Source: Candidatus Buchananbacteria bacterium | GTDB taxonomy: Bacteria > Patescibacteriota > Patescibacteriia > 2-01-FULL-39-33 | Assembly: GCA_903907165.1 (NCBI GenBank) | Contig: CAIVNC010000016.1 | Coordinates: forward strand, 1 to 28,842 | Direction: 5' to 3' | Length of the DNA: 28,842 bases | Shown here: piece by piece, positions 1,941 through 17,260 of the stretch | How positions within the stretch are numbered: position 1 is the stretch's first letter | How the letters are laid out: every line of letters starts with the position of its first letter | The notes under the pieces: model-generated | What the model saw: the letters and a program-made list of their open reading frames with translations, nothing else | Databases searched by the model: none | Told to the model about the DNA's origin: nothing | Translations under genes and position numbers: made by a program

Positions 1941-4466
1941 TTAAAATCTAGGTACTTCCGCCATCGCCGGCTTACCCAGCTGTCCAATCTTGGAACGCTC
2001 CAAGATCTCTCGCACCACCACTTGATTATCTCTACCATATTTGAGCCTAGACAATTCCTTGAGAGGCTGAGTGATTTCTTTATTGGCCTTGGCAATCACC
2101 GAAGGATGATAAGCTTTCATATTAAATGTATCCGTTGCCGTATTGTCGATAAGCAGACGAACATAAGCATTGTACTTTTCTACATTCATCAAATCATACT
2201 CACCCACTGCCGGCGCCAACTGCTTGGCCATTACCTCGCTATCATCCACACCAATCCGATAACAAACAATACTGCCAACGTTGCCAAAAACCGCATCCTT
2301 AACTTTGGTATCCGTGCCATTAACCAGCTGAGCAATATACTGATGAGCCATGACTAGGTTCAATTTGTATTTTCTAGCCTCAGCTAAAATAATGGAAATG
2401 CTATCGGTAATGAAATTCTGGAATTCATCAATATATAAATAGAAATCACGTCGTTGATCTTCTGGCATATCGGCACGAGCCAAAGCCGCCATCTGAAGCT
2501 TGGAAACGGCAATGAGACCAAGCAAGCTACAATTTGCATCGCCAATCTTACCCTTGGACAAATTCATCAACAAAATCTTGCCGCTGTCCATTACCTCGCG
2601 GAAATTAACACCAGATCTGCCCTGACCGATAATATTGCGCATCAATTCGTTTTCAACGAAACGGCCAGTCTTAGAAATAACATAAGACAACATGTCCGCG
2701 CCATTACTGCCCTTTTGCGAGGCTGTGTATTCACGTTCCCAAAAATCTTTAACTAAAATATCTTTAACATGAGTCAATTTTTCTTTACGGAAAGCATCGT
2801 CGGTAAAAATACGAGCCAGTTCAACAAGCGTGCAAGGATTTTCCGGATCAGCCATGAGAGCCAAAAGCGCATTTCTCATGTAATGTTCAAACATAGGACC
2901 AGCCATGGAAGGATCGGGCAACAGTTTATAGAAAATATTAATCATCTCCTGCGCTGCCTGATCCATTTCATAAAGACCATTGGCATCGAGCATATTAAGT
3001 CCGATCGGACGGCCAAAATCTGACGGATCAAAAATAATCACATCGTCAGCGCGTTCCTTTGGAATATAAGGCAAAATATCTTCTATGAGATTACCATGAG
3101 GATCAATAACACAAACACCTTTACCGGCAATAATATCCTGAATGGCCATAGTCGACATGGTCGTGGATTTACCAGTACCAGTCATACCGATGATATACAT
3201 ATGACGGCGACGATCAGCTTCTTTGATGCGAACCTGAACCGTATTGCCACGATAAGTATTTTCTCCGAGAACAACTCCCTCGGCCGGCAAGTTAAGTGGT
3301 GGCGCCAAACGTCTAGCCATAAGCCAGCGGATATTTGGCACTTCAGTATTTGGAAATGGCAAATGCCACAAGGAAGCCATCTCTTCGGAATTTAAAACGC
3401 AATTATTATTTTCATCAAACAAGCGATAAATAAAATTATTGATCGTCTTGTTTTCATTATTCTTAATTACCGCTTTGAAACCATTGGCATACTGATAATT
3501 GGAATACTGAGAAAAAGCATTAGCTACATATTTTACCGTATCTTTGGCTTGATGTTCCGTCTCAGCAAAAGCCACCAAGCGAATATTAACATCCATGCCA
3601 GCCTTAGAAGCCTTTTCTTCAATTGATTTAACCATTTGTTCTTCAAGCGGCGACAAACGATAATCCTTACTTTTATCTTCAACTGGTTTACTACTACCGG
3701 GCATCCAAGAATTAAGACTACCAAGAGGACTTCCCTGACTAGCCATAGCCTTTTTATAACTATTACCCTGTTGCATCTTGGAAGCGATTTTTACGCCGTT
3801 TTTGCGCCACTCCTTGCGAGCCGAGCGCATCAGAAACTGAATCGAGACTGTAACGCCTTCTGGCAACTTCGACAAAGCACTAAGCACATTAATCATTGGA
3901 TCACTCTCCATGCTTTTGTAGGTCAAAATCGGAAACATCTTGTCTTTAAGCAATTTAATATAACCGCCGGACACGTAACCACGATCGCGGAAAATGTTAT
4001 AGTCCTCAATTTCTTCAATCTGACAATGAGGATACTGGGATAAAATCTGTTGTTTGATATAGTCCTCAAGATACACCGGAATTGCCATGTAAAAAGTGAT
4101 CAAATGATCAGCTCCAACCACAACCTCAAACGACCAAGTATCATAACGTCCAAAAAGCCAAGTCTTAAAACCACGATGAGCGCGCAAACCACCAAGACTA
4201 GAATAAAAATTTTCGATGCCAGAAATAATTTCTTTAATATTTTTCTTGCCATCCTCTTCTTTGATTGCCACTCGCTGAGGCACAGTCAACATAAAAATTT
4301 TCTTCTGAAAAATCCCTGGGTAAACTTTATGATTAGCAAAAACCTTGCGCAAGATCAATAAGACAACAAAAACAAAGACGGCCAGACCAAGCAAGATGCC
4401 GGCTAGCAAAAGATAAGTAACAATATCTGGAGTTAAAATTGTATTGGAATCGATAGTGAAACCCAT
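1941..4466 (-). CDS. Membrane-anchored P-loop ATPase of the VirD4/TraG/TraD (T4SS coupling protein) / FtsK-HerA superfamily, 841 aa, with an N-terminal extension of unknown function
   Basis: N-terminal hydrophobic segment (LLLAGILLGLAVFVFVVLLIL). Walker A reads RHMYIIGMTGTGKSTTM, followed by CVIDPHGNL. Walker B-like reads FYLYIDEFQNF. These resemble TrwB/VirD4 motifs. About 330 aa between the TM segment and the ATPase core have no recognisable match. Confidence 0.7.
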   Translation of the reverse strand: MGFTIDSNTILTPDIVTYLLLAGILLGLAVFVFVVLLILRKVFANHKVYPGIFQKKIFMLTVPQRVAIKEEDGKKNIKEIISGIENFYSSLGGLRAHRGFKTWLFGRYDTWSFEVVVGADHLITFYMAIPVYLEDYIKQQILSQYPHCQIEEIEDYNIFRDRGYVSGGYIKLLKDKMFPILTYKSMESDPMINVLSALSKLPEGVTVSIQFLMRSARKEWRKNGVKIASKMQQGNSYKKAMASQGSPLGSLNSWMPGSSKPVEDKSKDYRLSPLEEQMVKSIEEKASKAGMDVNIRLVAFAETEHQAKDTVKYVANAFSQYSNYQYANGFKAVIKNNENKTINNFIYRLFDENNNCVLNSEEMASLWHLPFPNTEVPNIRWLMARRLAPPLNLPAEGVVLGENTYRGNTVQVRIKEADRRRHMYIIGMTGTGKSTTMSTMAIQDIIAGKGVCVIDPHGNLIEDILPYIPKERADDVIIFDPSDFGRPIGLNMLDANGLYEMDQAAQEMINIFYKLLPDPSMAGPMFEHYMRNALLALMADPENPCTLVELARIFTDDAFRKEKLTHVKDILVKDFWEREYTASQKGSNGADMLSYVISKTGRFVENELMRNIIGQGRSGVNFREVMDSGKILLMNLSKGKIGDANCSLLGLIAVSKLQMAALARADMPEDQRRDFYLYIDEFQNFITDSISIILAEARKYKLNLVMAHQYIAQLVNGTDTKVKDAVFGNVGSIVCYRIGVDDSEVMAKQLAPAVGEYDLMNVEKYNAYVRLLIDNTATDTFNMKAYHPSVIAKANKEITQPLKELSRLKYGRDNQVVVREILERSKIGQLGKPAMAEVPRF

Positions 4467-6081: not shown

Positions 6082-6630
6082 ATGTTTAAAATCATTCTCG
6101 AAGCGTTTTATCTGATTTTGCCGGCTTATTTTGCCAACATGGCACCGGTCATCTTTGCCAAACTTAAATGGCTGGAGTTTCTCAACAAGCCGATTGACGG
6201 AGGCAAAAAACTGAACAACGAGTTCATCCTGGGAACCAATAAAACCTGGCGCGGTTTAGTGTCAGGAATTATTTTTGCCATGATTATCGCCGGCATCCAG
6301 GCCTGGCTGTATGGATTTCAGAGTTTTTACAACATCTCATTGTTCAACTACCAAGAGTCGTATTTGCTTTTCGGTTTCTTGGCTGGCTTTGGCGCCATCT
6401 TCGGCGATGGCCTCAAAAGCTTTTTCAAGCGCCGCATTGGTATCGCTTCTGGAAAATCCTGGCCAGTACTTGATCAGATTGATTTCGTCTTTGGATTCTG
6501 GGCCTTCACCTATTTTATCGTTGAGCCATCTGGCTGGGTGACATTTGCCTTCTTCCTAATCACCCTTGTTCTTCACCCAACGATTAACGTGATCGCCTAT
6601 CTTCTGGGCATTAAAAAAGTTTGGTACTAA
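6082..6630 (+). CDS. CdsA/CarS-family CTP:phosphatidate-type cytidylyltransferase (short, CDP-archaeol-synthase-like DUF46 form)
   Basis: KTWRGLVSG and GDGLKSFFKRRIGI...LDQID motifs in a 182-aa polytopic membrane protein. It lacks the PGHGG segment of canonical CdsA. RBS AAAAGGAAA. Confidence 0.6.
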   Translation: MFKIILEAFYLILPAYFANMAPVIFAKLKWLEFLNKPIDGGKKLNNEFILGTNKTWRGLVSGIIFAMIIAGIQAWLYGFQSFYNISLFNYQESYLLFGFLAGFGAIFGDGLKSFFKRRIGIASGKSWPVLDQIDFVFGFWAFTYFIVEPSGWVTFAFFLITLVLHPTINVIAYLLGIKKVWY

Positions 6631-6677: not shown

Positions 6678-7640
6678 TTAGAACAATTCTTTCAAAGCCA
6701 ATTTAATATCACCCAAAGTCTCAACCCTCACCAACTTCGCTCGGAGCTGAGTGGCTCCGGCCCTGCCGGCAACATACCAACACAGATGTTTGCGGAGCTC
6801 AACTAGGCCATAATCGCCTTTGGATTTTAGCGCCCATTTGGCGTGATTTAAAATTAATTTCTTTAATTCCTTGTCACTGATCGACTCGTATTTTCCTGTC
6901 TTTAAATATTTTTTCATTTGACCAAACAACCACGGCTTACCATAAAGTCCGCGAGCTAAACCTAAGCCATCAACTCCGGCTTCTTTCATCATCTTTTTGC
7001 CGTCCTCTGGCGTTTTGATTCCGCCATTGCCAAGAACTGGGCCGGCCTTAAATTCTTTTTTCACCTTGGCAATCATGGCATAATCAATCTCAGCATTAAA
7101 TGGATCTTCATATGGCCGGCCGTGTACCATTACTGCGGAGATCGGCAAGTCTTTCATAAATCTAATAAAATCAATCGCGGTCACAATCTTATCACCTTTT
7201 TTAATAGAAGTTCGGAGCTTCACTGAGACCGGTAATTTTGTTCCAGCAAGCACGGCTCCAATAATCTCTTGGCACTTAGTCAAGTCACGCATCAAGGTTA
7301 CTCCCCCGCCATGACCGGCAACTTTCTTTGCCGGACAACCAAAATTAATATCAATGCCAGCAAAGCCAGCTTCTTCGCAAATCTTCGCCGCCTTGGTAAA
7401 CTTTTCTGGCGTTTTGCCAAACAACTGAACGACAACCGGCTGTTCAGCTTTGTCAAAATCAAGCAACTCCAAAGTTTTTTTGGAGTCATGATAAAGCCCA
7501 TCAGCCGAAACCATCTCAGTATAAACCACATCCGCCCCGCTTTCGCGACACACTCGACGGAAAGCAGAATCAGTAACGCCCGCCATTGGAGCGAGCGCTA
7601 GGATCGGCTTTTTTAATTTTTGCCAAAAGTTTTTCTTCAT
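6678..7640 (-). CDS. dusB: tRNA-dihydrouridine synthase
   Basis: LAPMAGVTD near the N-terminus, TIM-barrel Dus pattern, 320 aa. Its ATG overlaps the cysS stop by 1 nt. Confidence 0.9.
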   Translation of the reverse strand: MKKNFWQKLKKPILALAPMAGVTDSAFRRVCRESGADVVYTEMVSADGLYHDSKKTLELLDFDKAEQPVVVQLFGKTPEKFTKAAKICEEAGFAGIDINFGCPAKKVAGHGGGVTLMRDLTKCQEIIGAVLAGTKLPVSVKLRTSIKKGDKIVTAIDFIRFMKDLPISAVMVHGRPYEDPFNAEIDYAMIAKVKKEFKAGPVLGNGGIKTPEDGKKMMKEAGVDGLGLARGLYGKPWLFGQMKKYLKTGKYESISDKELKKLILNHAKWALKSKGDYGLVELRKHLCWYVAGRAGATQLRAKLVRVETLGDIKLALKELF

Positions 7641-9076
7641 TATTTCTTTTTCAAGATATACCCCCCTGGAGTATCCTCAATTTCAAAGCCGGAATCACTG
7701 ATAGCTTCACGAAGACAATCTGATTGATCCCATTTTTTATTTTGTCTAGCCTCTAATCTTTTTTCGGCCAAAACTTTGACCTCCTCTGGAATTTCAATTA
7801 TAGCAATGTCTTTCAAATTTAACCCAAGAACAGAATCAAAATCTAGAATCGTTGCCACCACATCCTCCTCAGTAAAAGACTCATCATTCATTTTTAACAT
7901 ATCAAACATTAGGGCTATAGCCTCAGGAAAATTAAAATCATTGCCTATCGCCTCTTCAAATTTTTCATCATAATCTGAAATTACCATACCCTCAACTTCT
8001 GAGGCTTTTTGTTTGCCTAAGCCGACTACCATCGTTCTAATAGAATCTCGTAAATTATTCAAAGCTGAGCGAGCACCATCCAGAGCCTCCCAAGTGAAAT
8101 TCTGCTTTGAGCGATAATGAGATTGCAAAAAGAAATAACGTAAAACCAAAGGATCGTAACCCTTTTCTTTAATTTCCGTAAGAGAAAAAGCTGTGCCCTG
8201 AGATTTGGACATCTTGCCACCATTAACCGTCAACCATTCATTATGCAACCAATAGTTAACAAATTTAACACCATTAGCCGCTTCGCTCTGGGCAATTTCA
8301 TTGGTGTGATGAACGGGCACATGCTCAATACCACCCATATGCAAATCGATAGTCTTACCCAGCAACTTCCTGGACATGGCCGAACATTCAATGTGCCAAC
8401 CAGGAAAACCAGCTTCGACTTTTTGGTCGATATTCTTGAAATGATGATTCCAAGTTTGGATCGCATTTTCATGAGTTCCAGCTTTAAAAAACCAAAGTGC
8501 AAAATCGATAGAACTTTTCTTTTGTGGATCGCCAACCTCACCCTTGCCAGCATCAGAAATATTCTTGCTCAAATCTTGTCCGGAAAGCTTGGTATAATCA
8601 GTTGCTTTAGAAACATCAAAATAAATCGCCAAGTCCGTAGCATAAGCGTAACCCTTGTCGATCAGCTCTTGCACCATCTCAGCCATAACTTTGATATAGT
8701 CAGTAGCTCGTGGCTTGAAGTCTGGTTCTAAGATATTTAGATCGTGACAATCACTTTCAAAAACTCGAATATAGTGATCGGCAATTTCTTTTGGAGTGCG
8801 ATTTTCGCGCTTGGCCGCTTTTTCCATCTTATCCTCGCCTTGATCATCATCGCTAGTCATATGACCGACATCAGTGTAGTTGCGAGCCATTTTGACATGA
8901 TAACCAAGATACGACAAAGAACGGCGAATCAGATCGGCCAAAACCATGGCTCTCAAATTACCGATATGCTGAGTCCAATAAACCGTCGCTCCGCACTGGT
9001 AAAAACTTACTTCATGCTCGTGAATTGGCTTAAATTGCTCTTTCTTTTTAGTTAAGGTGTTATAAATTTGTAACAT
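7640..9076 (-). CDS. cysS: Cysteine--tRNA ligase
   Basis: Class I aaRS with HIGN-type start region (WTQHIGNLRA) and KMSKSQG. 478 aa. Confidence 0.95.
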   Translation of the reverse strand: MLQIYNTLTKKKEQFKPIHEHEVSFYQCGATVYWTQHIGNLRAMVLADLIRRSLSYLGYHVKMARNYTDVGHMTSDDDQGEDKMEKAAKRENRTPKEIADHYIRVFESDCHDLNILEPDFKPRATDYIKVMAEMVQELIDKGYAYATDLAIYFDVSKATDYTKLSGQDLSKNISDAGKGEVGDPQKKSSIDFALWFFKAGTHENAIQTWNHHFKNIDQKVEAGFPGWHIECSAMSRKLLGKTIDLHMGGIEHVPVHHTNEIAQSEAANGVKFVNYWLHNEWLTVNGGKMSKSQGTAFSLTEIKEKGYDPLVLRYFFLQSHYRSKQNFTWEALDGARSALNNLRDSIRTMVVGLGKQKASEVEGMVISDYDEKFEEAIGNDFNFPEAIALMFDMLKMNDESFTEEDVVATILDFDSVLGLNLKDIAIIEIPEEVKVLAEKRLEARQNKKWDQSDCLREAISDSGFEIEDTPGGYILKKK

Positions 9077-9124
9077 ATATTTGGCTATTTCTTACCATTA
9101 CTTTACCTCTTTTTGAGTTTTTTT

Positions 9125-9157
9125 TCAAGTAAAAAGCCGGCTATGAAAAAGCCGGCT
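9125..9157 (-). terminator. Terminator after the small zinc-ribbon gene
   Basis: Minus strand: AGCCGGCU-UUUUCAU-AGCCGGCU followed by UUUUUACUUG. Each arm is itself palindromic. Confidence 0.45.
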
Positions 9158-9189
9158 GGATCAGAGCAAAGGACAGTAAGTGTTTCAAA

Positions 9190-9366
9190 TCAATTATCGA
9201 GCGATTTGCCTAGCATTTTACTATGACAATGCGGACAACTTTTTTCCAATTTCTTGGGAGAACGACTCTCTATTTGATACCCCAAATCATCAAAACCACA
9301 ACCACAGCACCGCCAGTGACAATCTTTTTCTTCTGGCACTACAACTTCTTTGGTTTTTTCTGACAT
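9190..9366 (-). CDS. Small zinc-ribbon protein (58 aa from MSEKTK; alternative start at 9387)
   Basis: CHWRCCGC...CPHCH cysteine/histidine cluster. The ORF-track 120-aa version extends through a highly structured upstream region, so it is probably over-extended. Confidence 0.45.
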   Translation of the reverse strand: MSEKTKEVVVPEEKDCHWRCCGCGFDDLGYQIESRSPKKLEKSCPHCHSKMLGKSLDN

Positions 9367-9414
9367 GATCTCATACCATCCTTTCATGGTTTTTAAGGAA
9401 CTGCAAAAAATCTT

Positions 9415-9541
9415 AGTAAGGCGACGGAAGATTTTATCTTCAATCAGCGTGGTGACCAATATCTCAATAATCAGCCATGGTGAGCCAACTATTACGGTTT
9501 TGATTCGGTGGGAATCAAACCTTGTGAGATACGTCGCCTTA
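9415..9541 (-). other. Structured RNA-like element closed by an 11-bp stem (GUAAGGCGACG / CGUCGCCUUAC) with nested hairpins; candidate riboswitch or structured leader
   Basis: Minus strand: the closing stem encloses UAUCUCA/UGAGAUA, GGUUUGAUUC-CCACC-GAAUCAAACC and GAAGAU-AAA-AUCUUC helices. It lies between a terminator and the zinc-ribbon start codon. Confidence 0.3.
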
Positions 9542-9566
9542 CTGACCTGCAAATAAAGAACGATTT

Positions 9567-9599
9567 ATAAAAAAACAAAAACCGGTCCACTGGGACCGG
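9567..9599 (-). terminator. Strong rho-independent terminator
   Basis: Minus strand: CCGGUCC-cagu-GGACCGG followed by UUUUUGUUUUUUUAU. Confidence 0.65.
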
Positions 9600-9692
9600 G
9601 CTTTATTTGAGCAAACAACCAAAAAGCGCCAAGTCCCTAGACCGGCAACAAGACGACTACTGTTTGGTTAATTTGCTGATGTTTTTTCATAT
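9568..9692 (-). ncRNA. Candidate ~125-nt small transcript (sRNA or leaderless 17-codon micro-ORF MKKHQQINQTVVVLLPV)
   Basis: It is bounded by a perfect consensus promoter and a strong terminator. An internal 13-bp imperfect stem (AGCAAA-uu-AACCAAA / UUUGGUU-g-UUUGCU) is present. An ATG lies about 7 nt after the -10. Confidence 0.3.
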
Positions 9693-9698
9693 ACTGAT

Positions 9699-9727
9699 AT
9701 TATATAGAATATTTTTTAATTAGTCAA
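9699..9727 (-). promoter_or_regulatory. Perfect sigma70 consensus promoter TTGACT-17-TATAAT
   Basis: Minus-strand read: TTGACTaattaaaaaatattctaTATAAT. -35 at 9722-9727, -10 at 9699-9704. Confidence 0.55.
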
Positions 9728-9763
9728 AAAGAAAGACCGTCAGAGCATTTTGCCCTGACGGTC
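9725..9763 (-). terminator. Terminator immediately after the flotillin gene
   Basis: Minus strand: GACCGUCAG-ggcaaaaugcu-CUGACGGUC followed by UUUCUUUUUG. Confidence 0.5.
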
Positions 9764-9807
9764 AGCGATTTTAAAAATCGAAATTACTACAATGCATTTG
9801 AAGATGA

Positions 9808-11673
9808 TCAGTCGACTTTGGCTTCAACCGGCGCAGCCTTCTTGGCGACCGACTGAGGAGCGACACCTTTGGCCGAATCCTGATTCTTTACGATCATTTG
9901 GGCCAGCAGGATGTCAGCAATATTGTTGCTGCCACTGCCAGAACCACTGATCATGATATCGGGCACCAGTTTGATCTTGTTGCTAGCCAAAGCGTTGGCG
10001 ATTTGCACCGCGGCGTAGTTACCAGACTCCATCGAATTAATCTTAAGCTGGGTCACTTCGGCCTCGGCACTACCGATCGCCTTGATCTTGCCAGCTTCGG
10101 CGTTACCAACAGTCGTCGTGACCATTGCGTCGGCTTCGGCGTTGACCTTCTTGGACTCGGCCTGACCCTTGGCATTTTCGATAGCCGCCTGAGCCTCAAA
10201 GTTGGCAATCGTCACTTTGCGCTCGGAAGCCACAACGTTGGCCTGGGTGGCAGCCATGGCCTTGGACTGCTCCAATTCCTTGCGAGTGTCTTCAGCCATC
10301 TGCTGAGTCTGGAAAGTCACCTTTTGCTGTTCGGCGATTTTCCGATCCGTGAGCGTTTTCATCAGATCTTCCGGCGGGACGATATCGCCAATCAGCGTAT
10401 CGATGGCTCCGACATTATACTCTTCCAGAGCCCGGCCGATTTGCTTCTTGGCGTCTTCCTGGCGAGCTTGACGCTCAGCCAGAAACTCGATCACATCTGA
10501 GCCCTGAGCGGCGTTTCGGAAGTAGTTACCGATTGTCGGCTCCAGCACCTGAGTAACCAGGTTACTCACTGATCCGAACATCGCGATAACCCTTGGCGCG
10601 TAGTTGCGACAGATGTTGATGATCTGGGCAACGTCCAAGTTGAACGTGAAGCCGTCGGAGGAGCGCACCTTGATCGTACAAAGATTCTTATCAAGGTTGT
10701 GCGCTTCGCTTTTGCCAGTCGCCCAGTTCAGGACGATATTGGCGGTCGGAACGTTTTCCACGCGATGGGTTCTGGTGTTAATAGGGTACATGCCAGGATC
10801 GAGAGGATCAACCCAGACACCTCTTTCTCCGTGACTGACCAGATTACCATGCTTGAATCCGTCGCCAGTGACATCCTTGCCAGCTTCGCCGACATAGGAA
10901 ATAACGACACCAACGTGAGCAATGGGCACAGTCGTCATTTCCACCATTTCGACTGAAACTAGCCATGGATTGAAAAAGTAACAACCAGCCAGAATCACCT
11001 GTTCCTGAAGACCTTTAAAACCCCCATTGTCGAGGAAAGCCTGGCCGTTCTGAAACATACTGTGATTGGGAATTTCCGGTCCGGCAATTTCACCAGACGG
11101 AAGCGGCTTACCTTCTTTGGTCGTCACAATCCCAACCTTGCCATCCTCGATCTCAACGACGTCGGTCGTATTAATCGTAAACAACGAGGTGTTTATCCTG
11201 TACGTTCCAGGAGGAATGATCGCAATTTGGGGACCGCGCTCACCGCCATTACTGAGAAATTCGCGCGCATTTTGGAAAAGATCACATTCGACGTGCTTGG
11301 CCAAAATCCGGCCGGCCGAGATAGGCCTGCCATCACGTGACTCAACCACACCAATCCAACCTTTCTTGATTGTGATGAAATCCTCAATCACGATCTCATA
11401 CTGCCAGGGCCAATAACCCCAATGCAGTCCTGGCGCCAACGTATCGGCCTGGATACCGGCTTCACCCTTCAGGGCAATAATCTGCCCATCGGAAAGATTC
11501 CGGTTTGCTCCGAACAGCACGAACTTTTTGTTGACGATACCGATGGAGCTCTGGGGGATAATCACTATCCCGAACAAACGGAAAGTCCAGCGGTAACAGG
11601 CGACGAATAGAAAACAACCGATGATGGCAAAAAGCCACCAGTGACTCAGGGTCCAACCGATCAGCGTCTCCAT
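9808..11673 (-). CDS. Flotillin-like SPFH/band-7 family membrane protein (621 aa)
   Basis: N-terminal TM segment, internally duplicated FLSNGGERGPQ / FLDNGGFKGLQ segments, and a C-terminal Ala/Glu/Gln-rich coiled-coil flotillin tail (VGNAEAGKIKAIGSAEAEV). GC is clearly higher than in neighbouring genes. Confidence 0.75.
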   Translation of the reverse strand: METLIGWTLSHWWLFAIIGCFLFVACYRWTFRLFGIVIIPQSSIGIVNKKFVLFGANRNLSDGQIIALKGEAGIQADTLAPGLHWGYWPWQYEIVIEDFITIKKGWIGVVESRDGRPISAGRILAKHVECDLFQNAREFLSNGGERGPQIAIIPPGTYRINTSLFTINTTDVVEIEDGKVGIVTTKEGKPLPSGEIAGPEIPNHSMFQNGQAFLDNGGFKGLQEQVILAGCYFFNPWLVSVEMVEMTTVPIAHVGVVISYVGEAGKDVTGDGFKHGNLVSHGERGVWVDPLDPGMYPINTRTHRVENVPTANIVLNWATGKSEAHNLDKNLCTIKVRSSDGFTFNLDVAQIINICRNYAPRVIAMFGSVSNLVTQVLEPTIGNYFRNAAQGSDVIEFLAERQARQEDAKKQIGRALEEYNVGAIDTLIGDIVPPEDLMKTLTDRKIAEQQKVTFQTQQMAEDTRKELEQSKAMAATQANVVASERKVTIANFEAQAAIENAKGQAESKKVNAEADAMVTTTVGNAEAGKIKAIGSAEAEVTQLKINSMESGNYAAVQIANALASNKIKLVPDIMISGSGSGSNNIADILLAQMIVKNQDSAKGVAPQSVAKKAAPVEAKVD

Positions 11674-11748
11674 AATTCTTACTTCCTTTCATCTTCGTTT
11701 TATGTTGTCAATATACTTCCGGGCAACCCGGAAGACCTTCCGCGAATG

Positions 11749-11777
11749 ACTATAGAACATATAACAAATTTTGTCAA
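11749..11777 (-). promoter_or_regulatory. Promoter for the flotillin gene: TTGACA-17-TATAGT
   Basis: Minus strand: -35 at 11772-11777, -10 at 11749-11754. About 75 nt of 5' UTR with RBS AAAGGAAG. Confidence 0.5.
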
Positions 11778-11783
11778 GACTTT

Positions 11784-11819
11784 GAGATTATTTTGTTTAA
11801 ATTTAAACAAAATAATCTC
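11784..11819. promoter_or_regulatory. Perfect 36-bp palindrome GAGATTATTTTGTTTAAA|TTTAAACAAAATAATCTC abutting the flotillin -35
   Basis: Exact 18/18 inverted repeat with no spacer. It ends 6 bp upstream of the -35 hexamer and looks like a dimeric transcription-factor operator. Confidence 0.45.
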
Positions 11820-11831
11820 AAAAATATAAAA

Positions 11832-11860
11832 AACATCGACCTTGATCGATGTTTTTCTAT
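11832..11860. terminator. Bidirectional terminator downstream of murF
   Basis: AACATCGA-ccttga-TCGATGTT flanked by an A-run and TTTTTCTATTT. Confidence 0.5.
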
Positions 11861-11874
11861 TTCACTAAAATTAG

Positions 11875-13179
11875 TTATTTATTCAACCAAACCCTATCCT
11901 GTCTAACCAATAAATCCTTAGCCTTGAGCGGTTCGGCCATAATTTCTTTGACAATCTTCTCCATTCTCATACCCTGAGAGCCTTTGACGAGCACATAATC
12001 CCCTTCCTCCAAACGATCTTGAAGGAATAGCCCGGCTCGTGGTGAATCAGAAAAAGTAAAAACATGATCACTATCCATTCCTTGACGCTCAACTTCGGCC
12101 GCGATTGTTCTCGCTCGCTCGCCGACCGTTACCAAAATATCTATTCCATTTTGAACCACAATCTCCCCTATCGTTCGATGAGCCTCAACCGTATAATTGC
12201 CAAGCTCCAACATATCGCCAAGAACGGCGTATTTTTTGCCAGTGGCTTCTATTTTACCAAAAGCCTTAAGAGCAGCGGTCATTGATTCCGTACTAGCATT
12301 ATAAGTATCGTCGATAATGGTAGTATTTTTAATTCCAGAGATCAGATTCATTCTTCCCTTTGGTGCCACAAACATCCTGAGAGCCTCAGAAATTTCTAAC
12401 AAATTCATGCCATAAACGACACCCAAAGCTGCCCCGGCAAGTGCTGCATAAATCAAATGTTCGCCTAGAATTCTAGGAAGTAAAACTGGCACCGTACTGC
12501 CCTTATAAGTCAACTTAAAACTCAAACCAGCAATTCCGCCGTCACCAAGCGAGGAATCTTTTTGAGAAATTTTAATTTCCGAAGCGGTTAGATCAGCTGG
12601 ATTATTAATACCATAAGTAATTACCCTAGCTGGAGTTTCTTTGATCATCTCCGCTACGTGCTCGTTGTCGTTATTCAAAATAGCCCAACCATTCTGCGGT
12701 AAATGAGAAACCATCACTGATTTTTCCTTAGCAATTTTATCTATACTCTTAAAATATTCCAAATGAACCGAACCAATATTTGCCACCACACCGATTTTAC
12801 ACGGGGCAAGGTCGGTTAAATATTTCATATCACCAGGACGATCCACGCCCATTTCCAAAACTAAAATTTTGGGATAACTTTTTTCTTTCCAGGCGAGCAA
12901 TAATAAACCTCTGAGAATAACAACAGCCCAACCGATAATCGAACTCTCTCCTGAGCTTGACCCAATAATTGTGAGTGGTAGTCCAATTTCATTATTAAAG
13001 TTCTTAACATTGCGACGAACCTCAAATTTTTGAGACAAGACGGTATAGATCGCGTCTTTGGTCGAGGTTTTGCCAAAACTACCGGTTACACCAATAACAT
13101 CGGGCTTATATTTTTTTAAAATCGCGTGCGCCAAAATCCGCAATTTCCATTTGACTATTTTTTTAAAAAAATCTTTCAT
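11875..13179 (-). CDS. murF: UDP-N-acetylmuramoyl-tripeptide--D-alanyl-D-alanine ligase
   Basis: GVTGSFGKTSTK P-loop of Mur ligases, 434 aa. Position after ftsI in the dcw cluster. Confidence 0.85.
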   Translation of the reverse strand: MKDFFKKIVKWKLRILAHAILKKYKPDVIGVTGSFGKTSTKDAIYTVLSQKFEVRRNVKNFNNEIGLPLTIIGSSSGESSIIGWAVVILRGLLLLAWKEKSYPKILVLEMGVDRPGDMKYLTDLAPCKIGVVANIGSVHLEYFKSIDKIAKEKSVMVSHLPQNGWAILNNDNEHVAEMIKETPARVITYGINNPADLTASEIKISQKDSSLGDGGIAGLSFKLTYKGSTVPVLLPRILGEHLIYAALAGAALGVVYGMNLLEISEALRMFVAPKGRMNLISGIKNTTIIDDTYNASTESMTAALKAFGKIEATGKKYAVLGDMLELGNYTVEAHRTIGEIVVQNGIDILVTVGERARTIAAEVERQGMDSDHVFTFSDSPRAGLFLQDRLEEGDYVLVKGSQGMRMEKIVKEIMAEPLKAKDLLVRQDRVWLNK

Positions 13180-16822: not shown

Positions 16823-17260
16823 CTATTCTATATTAGTCGATAAATCACTTAATTGTTCGGCAATGGAGTTGGAATTCTTTTCGGTGGCTGATTTCATTTT
16901 ATTCCATTGATCTTCATCCCAAATTTCTAGTCTATCGTAAAGTCCGGCAACAACAACTTTTTTATCCAGTCCAGCAAACTTTCTGAGGTAGTCTGGCAAA
17001 ACGATTCTGCCCTGACCATCAACCTCAACGTCCATAGCGCTAGCGAGAATAAAACGGGATACTGCACGACTACTTTCTTTATTGATTGGCATGGCAGCAA
17101 CTTTTGGTGCTATCTGCTCCCAACTTTTCTTGGGGTAAAGCACCAAACAGTTATCAAATCCTTGAGTCACAACTGCCTTTTTCAAATCATTACGAAACTT
17201 AGCTGGTACTGCCAGCCTTCCTTTTGCATCAATATTGTGGGAGTATTGCCCTAAAAACAT
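16823..17260 (-). CDS. mraZ: Transcriptional regulator MraZ
   Basis: MFLGQYSHNIDAKGRLAVP... duplicated MraZ fold, 145 aa. First gene of the dcw cluster. Confidence 0.9.
   Translation of the reverse strand: MFLGQYSHNIDAKGRLAVPAKFRNDLKKAVVTQGFDNCLVLYPKKSWEQIAPKVAAMPINKESSRAVSRFILASAMDVEVDGQGRIVLPDYLRKFAGLDKKVVVAGLYDRLEIWDEDQWNKMKSATEKNSNSIAEQLSDLSTNIE

Follow-up and report, generated by a model that had tools for sequence, protein, structure and literature searches.

The 28.8-kb contig CAIVNC010000016.1 of a Candidatus Buchananbacteria genome (Patescibacteria; assembly GCA_903907165.1), whose entire length of 28,842 nucleotides was analysed here and is called the window below, raises the question of how a GC-rich gene for a 621-residue SPFH-domain protein came to lie next to murF in a host with a GC content of about 40%. 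An initial annotation had taken this gene for a flotillin that splits the division and cell-wall (dcw) gene cluster, and had ascribed its composition either to horizontal acquisition or to strong codon-usage selection. The analysis presented here indicates that the gene was very probably acquired horizontally from a Proteobacteria-type lineage of medium to high GC content, or from its plasmids, integrative and conjugative elements (ICEs) or phages, and that it landed in the gap between murF and cysS. On this reading the locus is an ordinary but clean and well-delimited single-gene gain across phyla by a reduced-genome Patescibacteria cell, and the protein subfamily is of more interest than the locus.

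Origin of the SPFH gene in the murF-cysS gap

The SPFH coding sequence (CDS) begins with ATG at position 11673 and runs to 9808 on the minus strand (9808-11673), as delimited by open reading frame (ORF) calling, Pfam and composition, and it forms the foreign-composition core of the island. Sliding-window GC climbs to 0.49-0.545 only across ~9900-11700; the GC-rich tract is essentially the CDS itself, and the promoter region has a GC content of 0.22, as in other host intergenic DNA. With a GC content of 0.524 and a third-codon-position GC content (GC3) of 0.614, against 0.401±0.026 and 0.391±0.061 for the other 23 genes of the window (z = 4.7 and 3.7, respectively), the gene is indeed richer in GC than every flanking gene, as first noticed. 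Its codon log-likelihood under a host model is the most atypical of the 24 genes (z = -9.4). Back-translation of the protein with host codon frequencies yields a GC content of 0.442 and a GC3 of 0.392±0.018; amino-acid composition accounts for ~4 of the 12 excess GC points, and the remaining ~8 reside in synonymous sites. Codon selection linked to expression is rejected as the source of this bias, because the highly expressed ribosomal protein genes are not GC3-rich (rplL 0.30, rplJ 0.42) and the codon deviation of rplL runs toward host-typical codons, opposite to that of the SPFH gene. This comparison with highly expressed genes, which the initial annotation had named as able to refute its reading, comes out in favour of a foreign origin.

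To sample synteny, a murF scan of a genome collection was used, which gave 80 Patescibacteria loci onto which all window proteins were mapped. The nearest murF relatives (65-70% identity) come from metagenome-assembled genomes (MAGs) that bear the label Candidatus Buchananbacteria or Patescibacteria group. In a cluster look-up, each of the window's SPFH protein, murF and cysS is a singleton. The order rplJ-rplL-...-mraZ-rsmH-ftsL-ftsI-murF-(cysS-dus-corA-type IV coupling protein (T4CP)) is shared with the window by eight relatives (L003-L010), and in four of the closest (L002, L003, L005 and L007) murF is followed directly by cysS after a gap of 80-280 bp. The SPFH gene occurs at the murF locus in none of the 80 loci. 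In 10 Patescibacteria that are less closely related, the next gene of some size downstream of murF encodes RmlD, an aminotransferase, RmuC or others and is never mraY; a short dcw block ending at murF is ancestral in this lineage. As murF is already followed by cysS in close relatives, the SPFH gene did not split a dcw cluster that would otherwise continue with mraY and murD: the cluster is undisrupted and simply ends at murF. Its absence from this position in the related loci, together with its own promoter-like site and predicted terminators, also speaks against membership of the SPFH gene in the dcw cluster.

Other genes occupy the same gap elsewhere. L004 and L006 have leuA (512 aa) there, L008 has a 146-aa ORF of 52% GC, L009 several genes and L010 a 339-aa ORF. 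The murF-cysS junction is a variable and recurrent landing site for accessory genes.

The best protein matches of the SPFH gene product are proteins of ~675 residues labelled 'SPFH domain-containing' or 'YqiK'. The closest homologues, at 55-70% identity, are from Niveibacterium, Ralstonia, Uliginosibacterium, Steroidobacteraceae and unnamed metagenome proteins, and soil contigs with a GC content of 68-73% carry the closest metagenome loci (61-70% identity). When metagenomes were scanned for nearer relatives or for sister genomes with the insert, none exceeded 70% identity, and neighbours of the type found in the candidate phyla radiation (CPR) were seen at no SPFH-bearing locus outside the window. 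In a neighbour-joining (NJ) tree with bootstrap, the window protein is placed inside a clade of Proteobacteria-type sequences and a few mid- to high-GC viral contigs (97% support), whose named members are Beta- and Gammaproteobacteria and which is separate from a large low-GC phage group; within it the window protein pairs with a protein of a Logan contig (L001, 69% identity) at 72% bootstrap. The subfamily is extensive (matches at E<=1e-30 fall into about 460 clusters of 50% identity) and repeatedly associated with mobile elements: it is found on conjugative Ralstonia plasmids beside a PRTRC system, on an ICE-like island of type IV secretion system type in the R. solanacearum chromosome, on a 642-kb uncultured phage and on 80 IMG/VR contigs, many of them of 250-675 kb. 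The nearest viral relative (66% identity) is on a contig of 50% GC, near a phage-type primase-helicase.

Two groups of relatives are of interest in their own right. The Logan contig of L001 (SRR23086384, 3279 nt) encodes the closest homologue, a 607-aa protein of the two-repeat form; its gene is GC-rich (0.58), has AT-rich intergenic DNA on either side and a consensus promoter, TTGACA-17-TATAAT, and may represent a parallel acquisition in another lower-GC host. The large low-GC clade (L096-L166 of IMG/VR) is encoded on phage contigs of up to 675 kb, with a ~509-aa ORF upstream in 23 loci and a ~159-aa ORF downstream in 20, which from their sequences look like a nicotinamide phosphoribosyltransferase and a nucleoside 2-deoxyribosyltransferase, respectively. 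A literature search on SPFH proteins in jumbo phages or Patescibacteria found nothing specific to this subfamily.

Taken together, the foreign synonymous codons (GC3 and codon z-scores as above), the absence from all 80 related loci, the patchy distribution and the placement among Proteobacteria-type and mobile-element sequences, in a clade discordant with the host, support the horizontal acquisition that the initial annotation had offered as one of its two options. Several points nonetheless weigh against this reading. The best match is only 69-70% identical, and support inside the clade is weak, at 72% for the pairing with L001 and below 50% for deeper nodes. The GC3 of 0.61 is lower than that of the proteobacterial and Logan relatives examined (0.76-0.85), which calls for a donor of medium GC content or for amelioration over a long residence. 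Searches around the island for att-like direct repeats, target duplications and terminal inverted repeats returned chance-level short matches only, the neighbouring ORFs contain no recombinase domain of an integrase or transposase, and the window has no tRNA. The host genome is itself a singleton in the databases, and oligomerisation, topology and function of the protein are extrapolated from its relatives.

Three other explanations of the island were considered. That a higher-GC fragment was mis-joined into a CPR contig during assembly or binning is very improbable. The change in composition is sharp and limited to about 1.9 kb, and one MAG contig is all that represents the genome, but both flanks are host DNA in sister-genome order (murF at one end, cysS-dus-corA-T4CP at the other), and a chimera would thus need two precise mis-joins within one ~150-bp intergenic gap between syntenic sides. 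Furthermore, the regulatory DNA around the gene is AT-rich and host-like and includes a consensus promoter and a Shine-Dalgarno sequence, and the intermediate GC3 of the gene, between host and donor-like values, is that expected of resident foreign DNA. Equally hard to credit, and extremely improbable in our estimate, is a native gene of vertical descent that owes its high GC content to amino-acid composition and/or selection for expression. The homologous gene does exceed its flanks by 3-10 GC points in all 80-plus other genomes examined, and the amino acids alone lift the GC content expected in host codons to the 0.442 given above. However, this leaves two-thirds of the excess and the whole difference in GC3 (0.614 against an expected 0.392) to be explained; the ribosomal protein genes are not GC3-rich, the 80 related loci lack the gene, the protein nests among Proteobacteria-type sequences, and the copies resident in low-GC phage genomes have a GC3 of only 0.13-0.35.

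The gene could also be part of a larger mobile or phage-derived remnant of ~2.8 kb that fills the murF-cysS gap, including a small promoter/terminator unit at 9570-9727, a structured ~150-nt RNA (9367-9560) and a 58-aa zinc-ribbon ORF (9190-9366). Its product might then serve a phage-related function, for example in membrane protection or in superinfection exclusion, as it may on phage genomes. We consider this unlikely. It would be consistent with the ~730 bp that separate cysS from the SPFH terminator and have no counterpart in relatives with their gaps of 80-280 bp, with the abundance of the family on phage contigs, including those of 250-675 kb, and with the primase-helicase beside the closest viral relative. 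These extra 730 bp are, however, of host-like GC content (0.35-0.40), integrase and repeats are lacking, the window protein falls outside the large low-GC phage clade, and no phage or defence family is matched. In particular, the PADLOC defence models gave no match and PHROGs yielded a weak match to phrog_200 'lipoprotein' alone, which gives a reading of the gene as a defence system no support. Horizontal gain of the SPFH gene as a single gene remains our preferred reading.

Protein architecture and partner genes

As modelled, the SPFH protein consists of a transmembrane (TM) anchor, β-rich repeats resembling major vault protein (MVP) repeats, an SPFH 'shoulder', long helices and a flotillin-like end. 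The predicted anchor is a hydrophobic N-terminal helix (aa ~2-33). It is followed by two full β-rich repeats of ~72 residues (aa 101-172 and 173-247; 10933-11373, minus strand), with degenerate copies preceding them (aa ~36-98) and following them at the start of the SPFH domain. The SPFH/Band 7 core (aa 249-460; 10294-10929, minus strand) scores 86 bits with Pfam Band_7 (PF01145), whose cut-off is 23.6. Long C-terminal helices (aa ~435-564) and a flotillin-like C-terminal segment (9880-10371, minus strand) are indicated by the AlphaFold2 (AF2) model and the family profile; in the model the helices span residues 435-513, 522-547 and 550-564. The combination of membrane anchor and C-terminal helix in this model is that of the SPFH superfamily, and tandem β repeats followed by an SPFH-like shoulder and a cap helix are that of MVP. 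With a diverse alignment of 40 sequences the AF2 model reached a mean confidence (pLDDT) of 81.5, and >90 over aa 30-460, whereas the one built from 20 close homologues was unusable (pLDDT 46). The window protein deviates at only 1 of the 129 family columns conserved at >=95%, which indicates that the copy is intact and under constraint.

The similarity of this protein to known families differs between its parts and between methods. A Pfam scan recovered Band_7 alone, with Flot (PF15975) not matched even at E<=10, and phmmer against PDB chains gave no match. The Vault repeat (PF01505) and MVP_shoulder (PF11978) were likewise unmatched at E<=10 in the window protein and in four relatives, including forms with 6-14 repeats. 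In the family profile, the C-terminal ~150 residues align with residues 248-402 of Flotillin-2 (9l3g/9bq2; E 4e-6); the alignment with QmcA and HflC is weaker. In Foldseek searches the AF2 model matches the major vault protein best (E 1.9e-11, ~660 aligned columns), and then prohibitin, erlin, stomatin, HflK/C, QmcA and flotillin. The name 'flotillin-like' given earlier is acceptable for the C-terminal half alone. In the family alignment the TM helix and the SPFH core are separated by ~72-aa units that vary in number: a repeat hidden Markov model assigns 2 of them to the window protein, 3 to the proteobacterial forms, 4-6 to some members and 9-14 to those of 1300-1800 residues. These giant members (P0121-P0123 and P0129) carry their repeats in tandem, and in two of them, of the 1600-1800-aa class (P0121 and P0123), a C-terminal VWA domain is also present.

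NfeD (PF01957) was not matched in any window ORF scanned, in agreement with the initial annotation, which had considered the lack of an adjacent NfeD gene unusual. It is not unusual for this subfamily: NfeD was not recorded beside the homologues in the Ralstonia, Niveibacterium and Steroidobacteraceae genomes or on a Ralstonia plasmid, and clustering of the neighbours of 141 subfamily loci revealed no family-wide conserved partner. Clade-specific neighbours alone were seen, namely the two flanking ORFs in the phage clade and candidate atpD/atpC-like genes in another. As NfeD partners have been described only for the SPFH1, SPFH2 and SPFH5 subfamilies (Hinderhofer et al. 2009; PMC2636767), the absence of NfeD is a trait of the subfamily and not an oddity of the locus.

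Regulatory elements and other features of the contig

The minus strand of the window encodes, in order, rplJ-rplL accompanied by an L10 leader, a block of hypothetical genes with tsaB, mraZ (16823-17260), rsmH, ftsL, ftsI, murF (11875-13179; TIGR01143, 315 bits against a cut-off of 288.6) and the SPFH gene, followed by the small zinc-ribbon ORF, cysS (7640-9076), dus and a TrwB/TraG-like ATPase. The plus-strand genes, a CarS-like gene and corA, are located between dus and this ATPase.

The signals that the initial annotation had described around the SPFH gene are all present as predicted elements. An intrinsic-terminator-like hairpin with a 13-bp stem and a T-run (11828-11857, minus strand) ends the mraZ-rsmH-ftsL-ftsI-murF block and is the upstream boundary of the SPFH unit. 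It is followed by a perfect, spacer-less AT-rich palindrome of 42 bp (11781-11822; TTTGAGATTATTTTGTTTAAA / TTTAAACAAAATAATCTCAAA, 21+21 nt, 100% complementary), 3 nt upstream of the -35 hexamer; no perfect inverted repeat in the window is longer. The two fold as tandem hairpins, with z = -9.9 for the 86-nt stretch. The palindrome is a candidate operator, cruciform, or insulator between murF read-through and the promoter; no further copy of it or of its half-site was found in the window, 225 fetched loci or IMG/VR. The sigma-70-type promoter-like site TTGACA-17-TATAGT (11749-11777, minus strand) agrees with the consensus at 11 of 12 positions and is embedded in AT-rich, host-like intergenic DNA (GC 0.217 for 11746-11874). 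It is to be taken as a consensus match and not as functional proof, because a promoter scan of the region gave 6 sites against 4.6±2.1 in shuffled sequences, a total not above chance.

The predicted 5' untranslated region (UTR) of ~70 nt (11674-11743, minus strand), read from the sequence, has a GC content of 0.43 as against 0.22 in the promoter region. It contains a GC-rich hairpin, CUUCCGGG-UUG-CCCGGAAG (11716-11734, minus strand), and a Shine-Dalgarno sequence, AAGGAAG (11682-11688, minus strand), 8 nt before the ATG. The UTR fold is unexceptional (-13 kcal/mol, z = -1.0), and Rfam gave nothing at gathering thresholds in the island, with only sub-threshold, chance-level matches within 9000-12000. 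A riboswitch in the UTR was thus considered and set aside as unsupported. At the other end the SPFH transcript is predicted to stop at an intrinsic-terminator-like hairpin (9735-9763, minus strand) with a 13-bp stem, 8 G-C pairs and a following TTTCTTTTT, so that terminator-like hairpins bracket the gene on both sides.

The region between this hairpin and cysS contains further small elements on the minus strand. Directly after the SPFH terminator lies a second near-consensus promoter, TTGACT-17-TATAAT (9727-9699), with a strong terminator (9599-9582) ~120 nt beyond it. The predicted 123-nt transcript within 9570-9727 has a fold of z = -3.8 and contains a 17-codon ORF; the unit may specify a small RNA or a micropeptide. 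A multi-branched RNA fold of ~150 nt (9367-9560), closed by a perfect 12-bp stem (9415-9426 / 9532-9543) and without an Rfam match, lies upstream of the zinc-ribbon ORF (minimum free energy -59.8 kcal/mol, z = -4.9) and could serve as a structured leader or represent a small RNA. The zinc-ribbon ORF itself (9190-9366) encodes 58 residues with a CxxC...CxxC pattern, has its own Shine-Dalgarno sequence and terminator (9157-9135), and lacks both a family match and a counterpart in relatives. Over its first 13 codons (MSEKTKEVVVPEE) it is similar to the beginning of rplL, and at the DNA level the beginning of the L006 rplL is matched at 87% across 39 nt.

Two features lie farther away. The CarS-like gene (6082-6630, plus strand; PF01864, the CDP-archaeol synthase family) is situated between dus and corA, which are adjacent in L005 and L007; a carS homologue occurs in none of the 80 murF loci. 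With its GC3 of 0.563 and codon z of -3.6, it looks like a second lineage-specific insertion on the contig. The 841-aa TrwB/TraG-type coupling-protein-like ATPase (1941-4466, minus strand) occupies the same syntenic position in relatives at 67-71% identity; it is therefore resident and not a sign of a recent conjugative element.

A putative membrane scaffold and its known counterparts

The following model would accommodate these observations. To the division and cell-wall block mraZ-rsmH-ftsL-ftsI-murF of this lineage, normally continued by cysS-dus-corA, a lone gene for a membrane-anchored SPFH protein was very probably added horizontally, and only the coding sequence keeps its foreign composition. 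The gene would be driven by an AT-rich, host-like sigma-70-type promoter, be insulated by terminators on both sides and probably give a monocistronic transcript. Given the positive charges that follow the TM helix (YRWTFR), the protein is likely to be oriented N-out/C-in, with its bulk facing the cytoplasm. By analogy with flotillin, HflK/C, QmcA and MVP, it may form a homo-oligomer via its C-terminal helices, assembled as a ring or dome on the membrane, in which the repeats would extend the wall of the cage and fence off or stabilise a patch of membrane or client proteins. Such a scaffold would need no NfeD-type partner.

A more far-reaching possibility, which we put forward tentatively and regard as rather doubtful, is that the subfamily represents an uncharacterised, mobile and membrane-anchored 'half-vault'-like cage of prokaryotes and viruses, intermediate between flotillin and the eukaryotic vault, with the repeats as counterparts of the MVP repeats. 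If this were true, the lone capture of the gene by a minimal CPR genome would show that the cage functions free of partners. Independently of this, an SPFH subfamily that combines vault-like repeats with a flotillin-like tail and has spread on plasmids, ICEs and very large phages has barely been studied, and the structure of its oligomer could inform the relationship between SPFH cages and vaults and the reason why phages carry such scaffolds.

As a locus, the island resembles the single-gene islets of horizontal transfer in CPR/Patescibacteria in its atypical GC3 and codons, its absence from sister genomes and its position at a variable junction between operons. It differs from them in that a mobility gene, tRNA and att repeats are lacking and in that its regulatory DNA is host-like rather than foreign.

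As a protein, the SPFH product shares with the prokaryotic flotillins of the SPFH2 subfamily (e.g. B. subtilis FloT/YuaG and E. coli YqiK; COG2268) the N-terminal anchor, the SPFH domain, the long Ala/Glu-rich helices and the C-terminal segment alignable with Flotillin-2. This likeness is mirrored in database labels, with relatives called 'YqiK' by JGI and 32%-identical Rhizobium relatives called 'flotillin family protein' by NCBI. Unlike the flotillins, this subfamily has 2-14 additional ~72-aa β repeats between the TM helix and the SPFH domain, the window protein matches neither Pfam Flot nor, by phmmer, a PDB chain, and the subfamily loci are devoid of the NfeD/YuaF/YqiJ operon partner with which SPFH2 flotillins are paired (PMC2636767). 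The likeness to the cages of HflK/C-FtsH, QmcA-YbbJ, prohibitin, erlin and stomatin is at the superfamily level only (HflC NCBIfam, 17 bits against a cut-off of 427), and, in contrast to the HflK/C-FtsH type, the window gene is not adjacent to a gene for a partner subunit or protease and its product has the extra repeat region. Bacterial MVP homologues reported from Myxococcales, Cytophagales and Oscillatoriales, which are >50% identical to eukaryotic MVP (10.1101/872010), are a different set from this subfamily. According to a published description, the vault is the SPFH complex that does not associate with membranes (PMC12624060); the window protein differs from MVP in possessing a TM anchor and in having 2 repeats, as compared with the R1-R7 spanned by the repeats-only crystal structure of the vault.

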